Notes under the pieces: model-generated
Told to the model about the DNA's origin: nothing
Databases searched by the model: none
Seen by the model: only the letters and a program-made list of their open reading frames with translations
Shown: piece after piece, positions 13,440 to 50,335 of the stretch
Numbering within the stretch: the stretch's first letter is position 1
Layout: each line of letters opens with the position of its first letter
Program-made: the position numbers and the translations under genes
Assembly (NCBI RefSeq): GCF_058153355.1
Contig: NZ_CM177019.1
Length of the DNA: 64,000 bases
Direction: 5' to 3' (one strand)

Positions 13440-15711
13440 GGAAAACTCCCCAGTGTTGCAGTGATGCCAGTGCCTGCTGTTCGAGTTGTTGATGATGTGC
13501 AATGGCTTGCGGTGGACAATGCAACGGCATTTGCAGCGCTGAAACGGGAAGCTGTGCGAGCTGGTAATGCTCAAGCACCTGATGCGCCAGCGTCCCGCGT
13601 TCTCGTGGTGGTAGCCAGGCCATCGCCGCGCGTAAATCGGGCAGGGCGTTAATAAAATCGTCGTCACTCAGTTGATTTAAATGACTACTGAAACCGGCGA
13701 TAAATGCCGGCTGACAGGCCAGTTGATGGCGGGCCAGCGCCAGCAAACCGTGCAGCGCCTCGCCAGATTGTGCCGGGGATAATTGTGCCAGCATCGTCAG
13801 CGCCGCTTCGGCACTGGCGTTGGGATGTTCCAGACGCATCAGCGCGCCAAGGGCCGCACCGCGATCCAGCGCTGGGGCATGAATCGCCTGACTGCGACGT
13901 TCCAGTAAGGCTACCGCCGCAGAAAGCGAAACGCCGGGTAAATTAACGCCGCTATTTAGATCGCGCAGGATATGGCAAAGCGCCTGCCAGCTATGCAGGT
14001 GAGCGTGAAACTCCTTCTCATCCGGCCTGCCGTTGGATTCACATAGCCACAGTGTGCGATCGATAGCCGCGTATAACGTCGTCTGTAATATCTGCGCGCC
14101 TTGCATACCGCTGATTTCATCGAGCTGCCACAAGGCGTAAAGCACTTCCAGCGCCTGGCCCATTTCGGCAAACTGATTTTCCTTGGCGATTAATAATGTG
14201 AGTTGTTCCAGTAATTGCTGACTGAAGGACGCCAGACCCGCTAACGCGGCCTGGCTAAGACATGTGGTGATGCCGCTGATTCCACCCGCGTCCAGCATAT
14301 CGGCTTCTAATTTATTGCGTGCGGCCTCCTGGAGTGTGGCACCAAAGCAGGCGGCTTCAATCAATGCCGCATGTTGGCTAAGTGGCTGGGTTAATGTCCA
14401 GCGTTCTTCACCGTTGCCCGCCAGCGTCAGTGTACTTCCTTGCTCGCGCACAATGCCGGGAATCTCCAGTATTACCAACTGATGTAGCACCTGACTTTGC
14501 GCCAGTCCATCGGGGGTAAAGCGATTTAAGGTAAGCTCCGCCGGAAGAGAGATTCCGGTACGTTCCAGTTCGTAGGTGACATCTTTTGGCAGAGGTGGCT
14601 GTGGCGTCGAGGGGGCAAGTTTACCGAATCCGTCACCTGCTAATGTGTCTATCAACGTTACCAGTATCGGATCGGTATCGGGATGAATAACGTCGCGATA
14701 GCTCCACGGCAACGGCGCATTCAAGGCTTCTTTAATCAGCGAGCCTGCTATGGCATCCAGCCAGTCAGTGCGTAACGGTAGTGTATGACCGCGCAACTGT
14801 GCCAGCGCCATCGCATGTAAATGAGCGGCAGCCATATCCGCGGTTGAAGCAGGCAATTTGTGCTGGCGCAAACGGGTAAGAACCGTTTTTAGTAGTTGTT
14901 CACCTGCCTGCTGCAAGCCCCACCGCCAGCACCAGTTTTGCCAGACCGGGGCAGGCATTCCTGAAAGGTATCCTGCCAGCACATCAAGGCGCTTTTCACT
15001 GTATGGCGTGAGATAGCAACCTGTAACGGCATCATCCTGTGAGAGCAATTCTGGCTTGTTAATTTCTTGCGGGCATTCGCGCCACATTTTTGCCAGTGCC
15101 GGAGCGTGCCAGCCTCCGCAGACGACTAATACGTCGCCATTATTTTGCTGCATCGCCCATGCAATCCAGCGGGCCATAAAGGCTTCGCGCTGACGATTGA
15201 GTGCATCGCCGGAGGCGTCGCCCCGCAGTTGTGCAAAATAGTGCGCCAGTGCAGAGGGTAATATAGTTTGCTGGCTTTCATCTTCGAACAAGTGATCCCA
15301 CAAGGTGTCGCTGTTATCCATGCGGGTGGCACGCAGCAGAAAGGCCTGGCTTTCCTCTTGCATATCAGGCGAATCATCCTCTTCTTCACTTTGTGCCCAG
15401 CAAGGCAAATCGATGAAGTAAGTTTGTGCCTGAATACGACGTGCGGCTTGTAGCGCCTGCCACTCCGGCGAAAATTCAGCAAATGGCGTCCAGGCACCAC
15501 GCCCGGGGGCCGCACCGTCCTGATACTGGCAATAACTGTAAATAGCTACCGGAAGCTGGTGGGCTAACAACAGTTCGTCTACCCGGTCATTAAAATCAGC
15601 CGGGCCTTCAATCAACACGTATCGTGGCCGCTGGCTTTCGATTAACGATTTCACCAGCCGGGCGCAGGCCGGACTATGATGCCGGATGCCGACAATTAAC
15701 GGCTCGCTCAT
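13432..15711 (-). CDS. yehM: 759-aa uncharacterised protein YehM (DUF5682-like, largely helical)
   Basis: The ATG at 15711 (MSEPLIVGIRHHSPACARL…) lies 10 nt after the yehL stop and is preceded by GAGGAAA. I recognise no catalytic motif. Confidence 0.8.
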   Translation of the reverse strand: MSEPLIVGIRHHSPACARLVKSLIESQRPRYVLIEGPADFNDRVDELLLAHQLPVAIYSYCQYQDGAAPGRGAWTPFAEFSPEWQALQAARRIQAQTYFIDLPCWAQSEEEDDSPDMQEESQAFLLRATRMDNSDTLWDHLFEDESQQTILPSALAHYFAQLRGDASGDALNRQREAFMARWIAWAMQQNNGDVLVVCGGWHAPALAKMWRECPQEINKPELLSQDDAVTGCYLTPYSEKRLDVLAGYLSGMPAPVWQNWCWRWGLQQAGEQLLKTVLTRLRQHKLPASTADMAAAHLHAMALAQLRGHTLPLRTDWLDAIAGSLIKEALNAPLPWSYRDVIHPDTDPILVTLIDTLAGDGFGKLAPSTPQPPLPKDVTYELERTGISLPAELTLNRFTPDGLAQSQVLHQLVILEIPGIVREQGSTLTLAGNGEERWTLTQPLSQHAALIEAACFGATLQEAARNKLEADMLDAGGISGITTCLSQAALAGLASFSQQLLEQLTLLIAKENQFAEMGQALEVLYALWQLDEISGMQGAQILQTTLYAAIDRTLWLCESNGRPDEKEFHAHLHSWQALCHILRDLNSGVNLPGVSLSAAVALLERRSQAIHAPALDRGAALGALMRLEHPNASAEAALTMLAQLSPAQSGEALHGLLALARHQLACQPAFIAGFSSHLNQLSDDDFINALPDLRAAMAWLPPRERGTLAHQVLEHYQLAQLPVSALQMPLHCPPQAIAHHQQLEQQALASLQHWGVFHV

Positions 15712-15721
15712 GCATCTTTCC

Positions 15722-16810
15722 TCACGGCAGGCGGTGGCGAGCTTGATAATAAGCCTGCCAGTGAGCTTCTTTATGTGTAGCGACACGTTGTTCGAAGTAA
15801 CGGCGCAGACGTGCGCGATCTTCTTCGTTATCTTTGACGATGGTTCCGGCAATACAGTCCACCAGGTCGGCTGGCTCCCCCGCGCGATTCGCTAAAAACC
15901 AGGCGCGGACGCCCACGGCGTGGGCCACGTTAACGGCTTCAGCGGTGGACATAATCGCTGTAAGGGTATCCATTGACGTTTTCTTTTCGCCGTTGGCACG
16001 CAGATCGCGGAAGGTGCGTACCAGTAACTCAAGTACCGCGTCAGGCACTTTATGCGGAATACCGCTATGGGCCAACAAACGCGCCGAAGCACTGGCGACC
16101 AGTTCCAGCTCCTGGGCGAAATCCATAATCGGAAAAACCGTTTCAAAATCGAATCGGCGTTTTAGTGCCGCGCTCATTTCATTAACGCCGCGATCGCGGG
16201 TATTGGCGGTGACAATAATATTAAAGCCTTCCCGCGCATAGAGCTGACTGGCTTCACCAGTGAGTTCCGGCACCGTCATAACCCTGTCAGAAAGCATACC
16301 TAACAGACAGTCTTGTACTTCCAGTGGTGTACGCGTTATCTCTTCAAAACGGACAATTTTGCCGTCGCGCATTCCCTGGTAGAGCGGGGCAGGGACCAGC
16401 GCTTCCGTTGACGGACCATGATTAATAAGCAGGGCGTAGTTCCAGCCGTACTTGATTTGATCTTCGGTGGTAGATGCGCCGCCCTGGATAGTTAACCCAG
16501 CATCGCCGCTAATAGCGGTTGCCAGTAATTCAGACAGGAGAGATTTTGCGGTGCCAGGTTCCCCCACCAACATCAAACCGCGCCCGGTAGCAAGAGTGAC
16601 TAACATGCGTTCGACAGCGGAGGGACTAATCACGACTTTACGGCTGATATTTTGCGCGCTATCGCCAAGAATAAAAGAACGGGCCGCAGGCAAACTTAAC
16701 TGCCAACCGGGCGGGCAAGGTGCGTTATCATTTTGCTTTAATTTTGCCAGTTCATCGGCGTATAACACAGCGGCAGGCGGACGCTGCAGATGATTATTCT
16801 GCGGTGACAT
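15722..16810 (-). CDS. yehL: MoxR-class AAA+ ATPase YehL
   Basis: Contains Walker A LMLVGEPGTAKS and a MoxR-like C-terminal segment of the AAA core (VTANTRDRGVNEMSAALKRRFDF). Length is 362 aa. Confidence 0.88.
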   Translation of the reverse strand: MSPQNNHLQRPPAAVLYADELAKLKQNDNAPCPPGWQLSLPAARSFILGDSAQNISRKVVISPSAVERMLVTLATGRGLMLVGEPGTAKSLLSELLATAISGDAGLTIQGGASTTEDQIKYGWNYALLINHGPSTEALVPAPLYQGMRDGKIVRFEEITRTPLEVQDCLLGMLSDRVMTVPELTGEASQLYAREGFNIIVTANTRDRGVNEMSAALKRRFDFETVFPIMDFAQELELVASASARLLAHSGIPHKVPDAVLELLVRTFRDLRANGEKKTSMDTLTAIMSTAEAVNVAHAVGVRAWFLANRAGEPADLVDCIAGTIVKDNEEDRARLRRYFEQRVATHKEAHWQAYYQARHRLP

Positions 16811-16921
16811 ATATTCATCCCTGAAATGTATTAATCAAATAAACGATATTTTACGCGCAATAAATGTTTGGCGCATTAGTTGTTTGAGCGGAAAATATCT
16901 GGAAAGCAGATCACAGTAAAT

Positions 16922-17002
16922 AAAAAAACCTGCTGGTGAGGCAGGTTCTTTTATTTACTACTTTGACGATAACTTGCTGATTGTGCAACATTTCGTACCA
17001 AC
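16922..17002 (-). ncRNA. orzO: Orz-like antitoxin sRNA (predicted ~81 nt)
   Basis: Minus-strand promoter: TTGCAA (17037-17032), 17-nt spacer, TATAAT (17014-17009). The predicted start is the G at 17002. The first 18 nt (complement of 16985-17002) pair with 17151-17168 of the zorO leader. The RNA ends at a stem aacctgc/gcaggtt followed by a U7 tract (16922-16947). Confidence 0.65.
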
Positions 17003-17008
17003 GAATGA

Positions 17009-17059
17009 ATTATAACCATATCCACATCCCGTTGCAATTCACTAAGCGAGATTTATAAT
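17009..17059. promoter_or_regulatory. back-to-back promoters of orz (-) and zor (+) sharing one palindromic -35 hexamer
   Basis: TTGCAA at 17032-17037 is its own reverse complement. A TATAAT lies 16 nt downstream on the plus strand (17054-17059) and another 17 nt downstream on the minus strand (17014-17009). Confidence 0.6.
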
Positions 17060-17150
17060 CGTGCCCGTTGGGAGGTTGTGCCGGATTGAACCAATTTCAA
17101 GTCCTGGCTGCCGGACGGGGGGTGCCGCAGGTGGTGCCCTGATCCGGAGA

Positions 17151-17168
17151 GCAACGTTTCGTACCAAC
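17151..17168 (+). promoter_or_regulatory. predicted Orz pairing site in the zorO 5' UTR
   Basis: gcaacGtttcgtaccaac is a direct repeat of gcaacAtttcgtaccaac (16985-17002). An RNA made from the opposite strand of the upstream copy pairs over 18 nt with one G-U wobble. Confidence 0.6.
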
Positions 17169-17240
17169 ATACGTAAACCAGTATCGACAGGCAGTGTAAG
17201 GGTAAGGTGCTGGTGTTGCGCTCCTTAATAAGGAGAGCGG

Positions 17241-17330
17241 ATGGACACGCTGACACAAAAGTCAACCGTGCTCATTGCCGTACTGGAGTTATTAGTGGCT
17301 CTGTTGCGGTTGATTGATTTGTTGAAGTAA
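17241..17330 (+). CDS. zorO: 29-aa hydrophobic type I toxin, ZorO-like
   Basis: Manual translation gives MDTLTQKSTVLIAVLELLVALLRLIDLLK*. A strong SD (AAGGAG) lies 5 nt upstream. The predicted leader is ~174 nt. The peptide is nearly identical to the EHEC ZorO peptide as I remember it. It is below the ORF-track cutoff. Confidence 0.7.
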   Translation: MDTLTQKSTVLIAVLELLVALLRLIDLLK

Positions 17331-17351
17331 CGGGCAAATTGAAACGCATCT

Positions 17352-17376
17352 AAGGGGGAATACCGTTTCCCCCTTT
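17352..17376. terminator. bidirectional hairpin between convergent zorO and yehK
   Basis: aagggggaa-taccgt-ttccccctt forms a 9-bp stem and is followed by ttaat on the plus strand. Confidence 0.5.
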
Positions 17377-17383
17377 AATAAAG

Positions 17384-17704
17384 CTATTTTTCTATTTGTT
17401 GGATGAATATATTTTGTAGTTCACGATTAAAAATTGCTATTACAGTTTTAGGTGATTCACCTCGTAATTTACGCTCATCAATAAATTCATCTCTTATATA
17501 AATCAACGCATCATTTATTAGCGGGTCGACATCTTCTCGATCACGTTGATGAAATGTTGGATGTAGCCGGAATCGCTCCAACCGGTAGACGGAACCAGTA
17601 AATAATTCAGAGCATTTATGGATCTCAAGTCTGAAGGAAAACGGATCTTCAGGTACAGGGACTTCATAATCATAAGTAGCGACCAGCTCTTTTTGCACGA
17701 TCAT
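17384..17704 (-). CDS. yehK: 106-aa uncharacterised protein YehK
   Basis: The ORF lies 60 nt downstream of yehI on the same strand. The sequence is recognised as YehK. I recognise no domain. Confidence 0.75.
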   Translation of the reverse strand: MIVQKELVATYDYEVPVPEDPFSFRLEIHKCSELFTGSVYRLERFRLHPTFHQRDREDVDPLINDALIYIRDEFIDERKLRGESPKTVIAIFNRELQNIFIQQIEK

Positions 17705-17764
17705 CGCTTTTCCCGGTGGTAAGTCGTGTTGATAACGGGCAGTCGCATCACTGCCCGCTGTGTT

Positions 17765-20700
17765 TTAATGGAAAATGACGTCAGGTGCGCTTAACGCTTC
17801 ACTCAAATCAAACGTATCGAGTTCGGCAAAAGTGACAGATTTATTGTCACGGTACACTCGAAGAGAACGGAAGCTCATTAGCGCTTTGCTATCAGCACTG
17901 TAGTGGTTAAAACCGGGTGAAAACTTAAGGACCAGCCGATACTCGCCCAGGTCATAGACACATGCGTCCTCAAAACCTGACTCCCAGCCTTTGTATCGCA
18001 TTCCCATAAGTTGCCCAACGGTTGCGGATTTACCTTCCCAGCGAGTCAGGCTGTTACTGGCTGACTCGTCAGGTGTGAGCAGCACTGTGCGCCGCATCAA
18101 CTGGCGAAAAGGCGGCATAATTTCGTAATCGGCAAAAACCTGTGCAAATTCACTGCGCATTTCTGCTGTCATTTCTAACGGGTGGGCAATGCCAATCAGA
18201 GCATCCGCAGGCAGGTCAATTGGCTCATCTTGTGCGTTGCAGAACTCCCCCTCAGCGGCCACGCGAAAGGCGTTGAGTAAACGACGCGGTTCATTTGCCG
18301 GATAAACCGCCCATATTAATCGCTGAGTAACCAGGCGAGTAAAGGGATGATTAACAAACAGAGAATGAAAATCTGCCAGCGACCAGCGTCGGGTGGTGCG
18401 TAGGGCAGTTTCAAGACGCGGGAGCAGGTTTTTGCTCACCTGAGTGGCATCTTTTTTTAGCCCTTTTAGTCGGGCCAGTGCCTCGGGTGCTTTCAGCTGA
18501 TCGTCATCGGCGCGCAACCGGGGAACACTTTTCTGGCGAACGTTTTGCTGATCAAAGATAACCGGGTTGAGGTTTTCATCGAAGCGAACGGTAAACTGCC
18601 GGGGTCCAAAATCAAATATCAACGCCTGCGGATCATCCAGGCCCAGTGTTGGGACTAATCTGTCCGCTAACTCTTCCTGGCTTAGTCCACGATTTTCTGC
18701 GACCACCTGAAGAAATTCCGCCGCGTTATCACGTAAGGGACGGGATTTCGCCCGTTGCGATATATGATGCAGCTGTATCAGCGCCATATCATTATTCATC
18801 AGGGTAAGTATGTTCAGGCCACTGACGGCGCGGGCAGATTTGCCTTCCTGTGGCCAGGCGAGGATCTGTGTTGTCAGATCCCGAGCCGTGCTTTCGTCAC
18901 CAAAGAGACTTAACGCCAAAAAAGCCCAGTTGTCTTTTGCGGGGGCGCCAGCCTGTTGCCAGGCGGTGAAGAGATCCCAGGCAAAAGCGGCCAGCGTTTG
19001 TGGCTGGCAGAACGTTTTCAGTTGTTCCAGCCCACAATAAAAACGTCCGCCCTGGGTAAAGCGCAGCATTTCGCCGATAATTTCCAGAGCATCATCAGTA
19101 ACATGTTGATTATTCGTGATAATTCTCGGTCTGGACCACATTGTCGGATGCCAGAAATCAGGGGCTTTGGGAATGCGTGCCGGGTAAATGTCCATTGGAC
19201 CCTGTTTAAGTAATTGCTCCAGGGCAGGCCATACATCTGTATGCTGCCAGCGGTTTGCCACGGTTTGCAGTAATTCGCCATGCCCTTGTTCATACAGTAA
19301 ACGCAGAGCGCTGAGTGCCGCTTCGCTGTTATCGCCAGACCTGGCAAAGATTAATGGGATCAGCGCCGTAGCCGTATGCTCCGGCCATTGTAAAATCCAC
19401 TGGCGAGCCAGATTACGCTGGCCCGCAAAACGATGCCAGACGCGGGCAACGGGCAGCGCCAGTTCTGTTGCGCCAAAATGAATCAGCAGCGGAAATATCT
19501 CTTTGGGATGTCGGGCAAAGGCGGTGATTAATCCGGGCAAAGCATCGGTACCCAGGACACTTAACAGATATTCTACCCCGGTGTAATGAAAATCAGCCGC
19601 GACAATTTGTTGCCAGCACGATACCGCCATTTCGCGCGGCATTTGCGCGATAAGATACAGGTTCCATACTCCCCAACGCTTTTCATCAGTGTAATTAAAT
19701 TTGCGTTGGAAAGTTCGCCACCCCTCCATCAACGCAACACTATCTTGTGCCAGTAATGCGCTGGCGGCCTCTTCCCGGTAGTGTTTATTTTCATTCTGTT
19801 TTGCCTGATAATTGAGCAATCTTCCTACTGAAGTATGTGTCTCTAGTTGATCGGTATCCAGAGCATCCAATTGTCCTTTGAGAATAAACTCATTAAACTT
19901 CCACCTGTGATCTTCAAAACCTAATTCCCGCAAGAAGGTATCCGCCCCTCTGTTAGCAAGACGTTCGTCAAAAGACATGGCGCTAAAATGGTCAATTGCA
20001 GTTTGCTGTTCCGGCGTCCAGTGTTTATTCGGCGACCTGTACGCTTGCGGTACAAGCGTAAGTTCAGGTAGCGAAAAGTGAGTTATGGAAGCCTTTTTCC
20101 TGCCACGCCACGGTGGTGAAACGAGGATTTCAGGCAGACTACTGTTATCGGTGCTATCAATAACCGGTTTTGGCGAAGCCGATAAATAACTATTCACCAC
20201 TGCCCGGGCTTGAGTACTTAACGACGGGATCACCTCTTCTGCCAGTTGTGGCTGCGATGCCATCAGCGTTTGTAACAGCGTACGCCAGTATTCATCACGT
20301 GCTTTTTGCTGTGCAGGCAGCTTTTTGTCTTCGATGATAGGATAACCAGGGCGCGTAGGGGGGGCTTTTAACGCCAGTAGTTCTGCCAGTGCGGCGAGCG
20401 TCGCATGGGGAAAGTTTTTACTGTATTTAGCCACACGCTGCAGGCTGGGTTTGTTTTTATCGGCAACTAACAGCAAGATGCGAATAACTTGCGGATGGTT
20501 AATTTGTACCAGCAGGCTACCGCAATCTTCTTTATGGGCATACATCGCGAGGCGTGGAACGGCTGCAATTCCTTGTTCGCGCAAAAGGGCGGCGCAGGCC
20601 GCGTAGCCGAAGTGGTTTTCATGCGACATGTAGCTGGCTTCGCGATCGCTAAATATATCCTGGCTCCAGTAGCGTTCGAGTTTTCTCACCGCTCTGGGGT

Positions 20701-42261: not shown

Positions 42262-42392
42262 CCAAACGACTCGGGGTGCCCTTCTGCGTGAAGGCTGAGA
42301 AATACCCGTATCACCTGATCTGGATAATGCCAGCGTAGGGAAGTCACGGACCACCAGGTCATTGCTTCTTCACGTTATGGCAGGAGCAAACT
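42262..42392 (+). promoter_or_regulatory. TPP (THI-box) riboswitch controlling thiM translation
   Basis: ccaaacgactcggggtgcccttctgcgtgaaggctgagaaatacccgtatcacctgatctggataatgccagcgtagggaagtc… contains the conserved CUGAGA and ACCUGAUCUGGAUAAUGCCAGCG elements. The SD (ggcaggag) is adjacent to the anti-SD segment. Confidence 0.95.
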
Positions 42393-50209: not shown

Positions 50210-50335
50210 GTAGGGCGGATAAGGCGTTCACACCGCATCCGGCAACCTATGCCTGATGCGACGCTGAAGCGTCTTATCATGCCTACACAGCGCTGCCACG
50301 TATGCCGGATAAGGCGTTTACGTTGCATCTGGCAT
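50210..50335. repeat. BIME: three REP units
   Basis: The three units are gtagggcggataaggcgttcacaccgcatccggcaac, atgcctgatgcgacgctgaagcgtcttatcatgcctac and tatgccggataaggcgtttacgttgcatctggcat. Confidence 0.88.

Follow-up and report, generated by a model that had tools for sequence, protein, structure and literature searches.

A palindromic −35 hexamer predicted to serve both divergent promoters of an Escherichia coli zorO-orzO locus

The locus described here lies in a 64-kb stretch of DNA that was analysed as a whole (the window), between yehL and yehK, and is zorO-orzO, a type I toxin–antitoxin pair already known from E. coli. On one side it is flanked by yehL and yehM, and on the other by yehK and yehI. 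An earlier, sequence-only reading had assigned the two promoters of this region to a toxin and its antitoxin, and both genes could now be named, zorO as the toxin and orzO as the antitoxin, from an Rfam match, an open reading frame (ORF) of 29 amino acids, and the yehL/yehK flanks. The zor-orz system has been described in several studies (Fozo 2010, PMC2887945; Wen 2014, PMC3919570; Wen 2017, PMC5397157; mSystems 2024, PMC11264685). In the RefSeq annotation of K-12, no feature is placed in the gap between yehK and yehL. Elsewhere in the window, Rfam returned a TPP riboswitch (42262–42358, plus strand, 71.2 bits) and a naRNA4/CssrE element (50213–50283, plus strand), the latter at 60 bits and barely over its gathering score.

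The antitoxin sRNA OrzO, of ~81–85 nt, is encoded on the minus strand at 16918–17002. The full Rfam model OrzO-P (RF02083, model positions 1–76) aligned from 16995 down to 16922 with a score of 90.6 bits (gathering score, 60). A scan for terminator-like hairpins found its intrinsic terminator, a stem at 16927–16947 on the minus strand followed by a U-run; the distance from G 17002, the first nucleotide of the transcript, to this U-run is 81–85 nt, and the size given for OrzO in the literature is ~85 nt. In the terminator region (16915–16959), the hairpin lies between an A-run and a T-run, so a terminator is scored on either strand, and this two-sided hairpin also accounts for a spurious weak match to OrzO-P on the plus strand. 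Of the matches of the Thr and Trp leaders, STnc370, and rliD to orzO, none reached its gathering score, and all are due to the terminator hairpin alone.

Divergent from orz, the zor ORF (17241–17330, plus strand) encodes a hydrophobic peptide of 29 aa, MDTLTQKSTVLIAVLELLVALLRLIDLLK, which shares 28 of its 29 residues with ZorO of other loci. As is characteristic of the zor-orz family, it is preceded by a long 5′ UTR, here of 174 nt (17067–17240, plus strand), which begins with G 17067 directly after the discriminator CGTGCCC. Codon 8 of the window toxin (17262–17264) specifies Ser (MDTLTQKS...), and Leu8 was found in all 13 of the other intact copies collected; Ser8 places a polar side chain where the predicted membrane helix of Zor begins. 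Downstream of the ORF, a probable terminator hairpin, AGGGGGAA-TACCGT-TTCCCCCT followed by TT, was read at 17353–17376 of the plus strand. It would end a zorO transcript of ~310 nt, the size published for the mRNA. The toxicity of Zor and its rescue by Orz have been demonstrated in the literature for the EDL933 alleles.

Primer extension has located the 5′ ends of the two toxin mRNAs and the two sRNAs in EDL933, where the zorO UTR measures 174 nt with the ribosome binding site (RBS) at +164 to +169. In the window, AAGGAG stands at 17230–17235 and the ATG at 17241, and because of the UTR length and the RBS position, the zorO +1 is placed at G 17067, 8 nt past the −10. OrzO pairs with zorO through its first 18 nt; the corresponding 18-nt repeat ends at 17002, which puts the OrzO +1 at G 17002, 7 nt past its −10. 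The distance between the two starts is 65 bp. Thus, the 5′ ends published for EDL933 fit both of the starts predicted from the promoters, and do not lie elsewhere.

The repeat in question (16985–17002 and 17151–17168) is a direct repeat of 18 nt with one difference (94% identity) and, as OrzO is transcribed from the minus strand, it gives 17 Watson–Crick pairs and one G-U. The target site (17151–17168, plus strand) lies within the EAP region of the zorO 5′ UTR. Pairs of zor and orz have been defined by complementarity over a minimum of 15 uninterrupted nt, or over 17 nt if one mismatch is allowed (PMC11264685), and the 5′ end of OrzO and the zor 5′ UTR of the window are complementary to this extent. 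The zorO 5′ UTR is predicted to fold (z-score only −1.6) with its nucleotides 1–5 paired to CCAAC at 17164–17168. The 5′ GUUGG of OrzO targets these same bases, so the 5′ end of the toxin mRNA mimics the antitoxin. A second direct repeat joins 17137–17152 and 17223–17238 (16 nt, 75% identity); the EAP/standby region, CCCTGATCCGGAGAGC, is similar to the true RBS region, CCTTAATAAGGAGAGC, in keeping with the published proposal that the standby site is RBS-like. According to the literature, the main control of ZorO is post-transcriptional and involves an inert full-length 5′ UTR, pairing with OrzO, and RNase III.

Between the two genes, the hexamer TTGCAA (17032–17037) reads identically on both strands and stands as the predicted −35 of each promoter. 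On the plus strand it is followed by a spacer of 16 nt (17038–17053) and the predicted zorO −10, TATAAT (17054–17059); on the minus strand, a spacer of 17 nt (17015–17031) leads to the predicted orzO −10, also TATAAT (17009–17014, ATTATA on the top strand). The palindrome, the two TATAAT boxes, and the spacings of 16 and 17 nt had all been reported in the sequence-only reading, and direct inspection and a consensus scan confirmed them. Both promoters match the consensus at 10 of 12 positions, and the scan found no other promoter-like site in 15500–18500. The arrangement is not explained by chance: ATTATA-N16-18-TTGCAA-N16-18-TATAAT occurred once in the 64-kb window but never in 100 dinucleotide shuffles. 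Over the same 64 kb, zorO/orzO was the sole back-to-back pair of promoter-like sites with −35 hexamers overlapping by at least 4 bp, and 100 first-order Markov shuffles of the window yielded no pair in which both promoters matched at 10 or more of the 12 positions. The symmetry reaches past the hexamers, as CCAACG (16998–17003) is inverted relative to CGTTGG (17065–17070), and therefore both transcripts start with 5′-GUUGG.

Other registers were considered for the −35 boxes. With a spacer of 17 nt, the zorO −35 would be GTTGCA, which matches the consensus at three of six positions and whose extra base varies among copies. For orzO, a spacer of 18 nt gives ATTGCA (only 3/6) and one of 16 nt gives TGCAAC (only 2/6). 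TTGCAA itself occurs only once between the two −10 boxes, and the extended −10 TG motif is absent from both promoters. Because the shifted registers reach at most 3/6 and draw on non-conserved bases, and because there is no TG motif, both promoters most probably depend on the single TTGCAA, as judged from the sequence.

To follow the arrangement across strains, copies of the locus were gathered without conditioning on the promoter, both by the toxin ORF and by BLAST with the orzO-to-zorO segment. The resulting 23 copies come from E. coli, Shigella, E. whittamii, and two further Escherichia species, and cover O-, P-, and Q-like variants as well as "orz-only" loci. Among them, ATTATA-17-TTGCAA-16-TATAAT was found in every copy with an intact toxin and in every orz-only copy; TTGCAA was invariant in all copies collected, and each −10 in the intact ones. 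When the nine distinct cores were compared, none of the 18 hexamer columns varied, against 22 of the 33 spacer columns (Fisher p = 2.4e-6). The varying columns numbered 8 of 16 in the zorO spacer, where the initial TT and the final GAGATT were invariant and the middle 8 nt variable, and 14 of 17 in the orzO spacer, which on the minus strand ends in GGT and so places a G at −14; the length of both spacers was constant. Deviations, in the form of spacer indels or an altered −10, were restricted to both copies of L007 and one copy of L008. A single zor ORF was picked up in L007, and it is also disrupted. These deviant copies are either pseudogenes (Shigella) or assembly errors; their indels, around 5419–5607 in L008, are of 2–3 nt and some fall in homopolymer-like runs.

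The same picture emerges from larger collections. In a published survey of 2,439 loci, TTGCAA was the −35 in 99.4% for both Zor and Orz, and TATAAT the −10 in 100% for zor and 99.8% for orz (PMC11264685, Table 3). The intergenic region of the window was matched in 5,231 of 5,426 complete E. coli genomes, and its 91-bp promoter segment in 5,023 (~93%). The range of the family was surveyed with a degenerate search for the toxin C-terminus in one genome per bacterial species, and it was seen only in Escherichia and Shigella; two contigs from Bacilli (L009 and L010) were chance matches to the pattern, with neither a Zor-like ORF start nor the promoter core. Because the copies are closely related, part of this conservation comes from shared ancestry; the variable spacers argue against ancestry as the full explanation. 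To judge from these alignments, the architecture is under selection and clearly functional.

The orz-only loci (L004, 1701–1760; L017; L018), which are of the MG1655 type, have lost the toxin and still carry ATTATA-17-TTGCAA-16-TATAAT complete. There, the orphan toxin promoter aims antisense into the 3′ end of yehK, ~50 nt off, and the toxin −10 falls at −52 to −57 relative to the orz start, where UP elements are located. These loci might keep the toxin −10 as UP-like DNA, or merely because the deletion is recent.

A perfect TATAAT −10 lowers the dependence of a promoter on its −35. For this reason, TTGCAA could be used by only one of the two promoters, with the other running on its −10 and the sharing a by-product, of no mechanistic significance, of fitting two promoters into a small cassette; the −35 boxes are predictions in the literature too. 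However, neither promoter has an extended −10 TG to compensate, and both spacer lengths are invariant although the sequences vary at 8/16 and 14/17 positions, spacer indels being confined to L007, where the zor ORF is damaged, and to the one copy of L008. We regard use by a single promoter as distinctly unlikely.

The −35 consensus for sigma-70 is TTGACA, which no palindromic hexamer can match at more than four of six positions. Among palindromic hexamers, only TTGCAA retains TTG on both strands, and moving position 4 or 5 toward the consensus for one promoter costs the other its G3 or T2. As part of the explanation that we favor overall, and with the same somewhat better than even confidence, TTGCAA would thus be a zero-sum compromise between the two promoters, held by selection. 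Such a trade-off would be reason sufficient for the near-invariance of the hexamer. A perfect palindrome within an invariant block that extends to TTGCAATT could also suggest the operator core of a dimeric regulator of both genes, conserved mainly for that role. This we consider very improbable: conservation is asymmetric about the dyad (the left flank varies, and the TT on the right is fixed), no regulator has been reported for zor-orz, the regulation of which, according to a 2025 review, remains to be deciphered, and promoter function alone accounts for the conservation.

In promoter complexes, the recognition helix of sigma region 4 occupies the major groove over the −35 hexamer. Two holoenzymes cannot hold TTGCAA together, since the dyad-related second sigma region 4 would need the same groove. 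The earlier statement that two polymerases cannot share one −35 is therefore sound, as inferred from the established structure of RNAP on promoters. With the usual RNAP footprint of −55 to +20, polymerases at zorO (17012–17087) and orzO (16982–17057) would, moreover, overlap over ~46 bp (17012–17057). The RNAP sites of two divergent promoters thus overlap by geometry, the activity of the promoters being taken from the literature and from homology. A holoenzyme bound in one orientation would shut out the other until promoter escape. As exclusion is limited to the interval between binding and escape, it would matter only at high occupancy and, as it ends at escape, the damping of one promoter would equal the fraction of time for which the other is occupied.

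The two sides of the hexamer are not equivalent. At the orzO promoter, the spacer has the optimal length of 17 nt, position −14 is a conserved G, and the discriminator (TCATTC) is AT-rich; the zorO promoter has a spacer of 16 nt, no TG motif, and a conserved GC-rich discriminator (CGTGCCC). Because of the differences in spacer, −14 base, and discriminator, the orzO promoter would, by consensus rules only, be the stronger one, binding RNAP better, holding it longer, and out-firing zorO. The most likely consequences would be a built-in bias of antitoxin over toxin and a modest reduction of zorO initiation, in one direction only, that scales with how far RNAP occupies PorzO. The two genes would also be coupled genetically: a mutation in the −35 would weaken zorO and orzO together and, because it hits both, the toxin could not be left expressed alone. 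In the literature, OrzO is abundant in exponential phase, with a strong band, and ZorO-FLAG protein was undetected in MG1655 when encoded in single chromosomal copy by the 5′-truncated Δ28 zorO under native promoter elements. Both observations are consistent with a stronger antitoxin promoter. On balance, and with rather more confidence than doubt, we favor an explanation in which the shared −35 imposes exclusion between polymerases, the antitoxin promoter is the stronger, zorO is damped modestly and one-sidedly, and no toggle switch results.

A GC-rich discriminator renders a promoter sensitive to supercoiling, and that of zorO is both GC-rich and conserved. The two promoters could then be coupled positively through topology, with negative supercoils in the 65-bp interval allowing the firing of orzO to help melt zorO, so that both are co-activated. 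Coupling of divergent bacterial promoters by transcription-driven supercoiling has been documented (PMC5175336), although the documented case has non-overlapping promoters. At zor-orz, the second polymerase must wait for the first to leave, so any benefit from supercoiling would have to outlast escape, and we think such co-activation rather unlikely.

The sequence-only reading had pointed in the opposite direction and proposed that mutually exclusive initiation makes the locus a built-in competitive switch. The exclusion stands, as an inference from geometry; the switch is not supported, the precedents calling for an aggressive or activated promoter. In the work of Bendtsen et al. (2011; PMC3167631), overlapping promoters interfered only if one of them was "aggressive", and interference was abolished by a 2-bp mutation in the −35, or a 1-bp mutation in the −10, of the aggressive partner. 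The −35 result bears on zor-orz because TTGCAA likewise departs from the consensus by 2 bp. At five of five natural bidirectional promoters with a shared −10, basal activity was too low for polymerases to compete, and competition emerged only after strong activation (Warman et al. 2026; PMC12825309); the same conclusion, that there is no basal RNAP competition, has been reached for torS/torT.

A strong switch, with toxin and antitoxin initiation anticorrelated on each chromosome copy and perhaps heterogeneity in ZorO from cell to cell, would nevertheless have some points in its favor. Co-occupancy is geometrically impossible, and with two consensus −10 boxes, occupancy may be above average. 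According to the literature, OrzO drops in stationary phase, which could free PzorO, and at shared −10 promoters, strong activity in one direction does lead to competition and does affect noise (PMC12825309). However, interference needs high occupancy; it was lost after a 2-bp departure in the synthetic test, and competition was absent at basal activity from all five natural bidirectional promoters. A switch also requires feedback, of which the DNA shows no sign, and no known regulator would flip the balance. We judge a strong switch to be unlikely. The layout is probably not a toggle switch, and its competitive effect is probably weak. Because both −10 boxes are perfect, and the zor-orz promoters maybe stronger than those studied by Warman et al., competition could exceed the level assumed here. 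The most far-reaching reading is a new bidirectional class built on a shared palindromic −35, in which the A/T-rich −10 region of each promoter doubles as UP-like DNA for the other, exclusion between polymerases makes toxin and antitoxin bursts anticorrelated on each chromosome, and rare cells with a transient excess of zorO mRNA over OrzO would provide bet-hedging in transcription on top of the control by RNA; it seems to us quite doubtful.

The zor-orz system, its hexamers, and the concept of polymerases competing at overlapping divergent promoters are known. The supposition that the shared box had not been pointed out before holds insofar as none of the accessible texts calls the hexamer shared or palindromic, and fails insofar as the hexamers themselves are already in PMC3919570 and PMC11264685. 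In Figure 1A of Wen et al. (2014; PMC3919570), boxes mark the predicted −35 and −10 elements, and Table 3 of PMC11264685 has one row "-35 (TTGCAA)" with the same percentages for Zor and Orz, as would be expected from scoring one hexamer twice. The 2025 review notes that divergent type I toxin–antitoxin promoters may meet "competition for transcription" and "promoter interference". In the main text of the accessible zor-orz papers, the box is nowhere described as shared or as a palindrome, nor is interference put to a test. What is added here is a discussion of the −35-sharing geometry, the zero-sum logic, and the 16/17 asymmetry.

Even without competition, the layout would account for a hexamer that is almost never mutated, changes being zero-sum between the genes, and for an excess of antitoxin with identical boxes through a spacer difference of 1 bp. 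If the −35 measurably couples the promoters, a layer of control at the level of transcription would be added to a system accounted for until now by RNA structure, sRNA pairing, and RNase III only, and the recent rules of bidirectional promoters with a shared −10 would extend to pairs with a shared −35. The region is a naturally balanced bidirectional promoter of ~65 bp, highly conserved and present in ~93% of complete E. coli genomes; being so small, conserved, and widespread, it is easy to test.

The closest known relatives are the zorO-orzO and zorP-orzP loci of EDL933, which agree with the window in their genes, the position between yehL and yehK, hexamers, spacings, and the logic of OrzO-zorO pairing. 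The window differs from them in having a single zor-orz copy instead of a tandem pair, and Ser8 in place of Leu8 in the toxin. Its spacers are a rare variant; identity is 98.8% with one goat isolate and ~91% with most strains. The closest relative (L001, 98.8% identical) itself carries two tandem zor-orz copies, compared with the one in the window.

Among bidirectional promoters, those of Warman et al. (for example, acrR/acrA and torS/torT) resemble zor-orz in having one symmetric sigma-70 element, exclusion between polymerases, and a proposal of competition. There, however, the shared element is a pseudo-symmetric −10 and the starts are 18 bp apart, whereas zor-orz shares a −35 and its starts are 65 bp apart. 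The window has neither the shared or overlapping −10 nor the start distance of ~18 bp that define bidirectionality in that work, and it falls outside the class because "separate divergent promoters" are treated there as free of clashes (PMC12825309). In aroP P1/P3, the synthetic P/PREV of Bendtsen et al., and P22 Pant/Pmnt, as proposed for zor-orz, a polymerase at one promoter hinders the other, but these cases have regulators that shift the balance (TyrR, LacI, and Arc/Mnt) and none is known for zor-orz. The exact coincidence of a palindromic −35 is absent from the accessible texts on these three cases.

Similar gene arrangements are found in shoB-ohsC and tisB-istR-1, the other divergent type I toxin–antitoxin loci of E. 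coli, in which an sRNA encoded divergently from the toxin uses its 5′ end to pair, over 18–21 nt, with the long 5′ UTR of the toxin mRNA. The Rfam model for OhsC gave only a weak match on orzO, of 28.5 bits and under its gathering score. The promoters of these systems are organized differently: shoB/ohsC of MG1655 has separate −35 boxes, GTGACC and TTGTAA, ~70 bp apart, with starts ~140 bp apart, and tisAB/istR has distinct −35 boxes together with a LexA site. Because the boxes are separate in both, the shared −35 is peculiar to zor-orz among these divergent toxin–antitoxin pairs.
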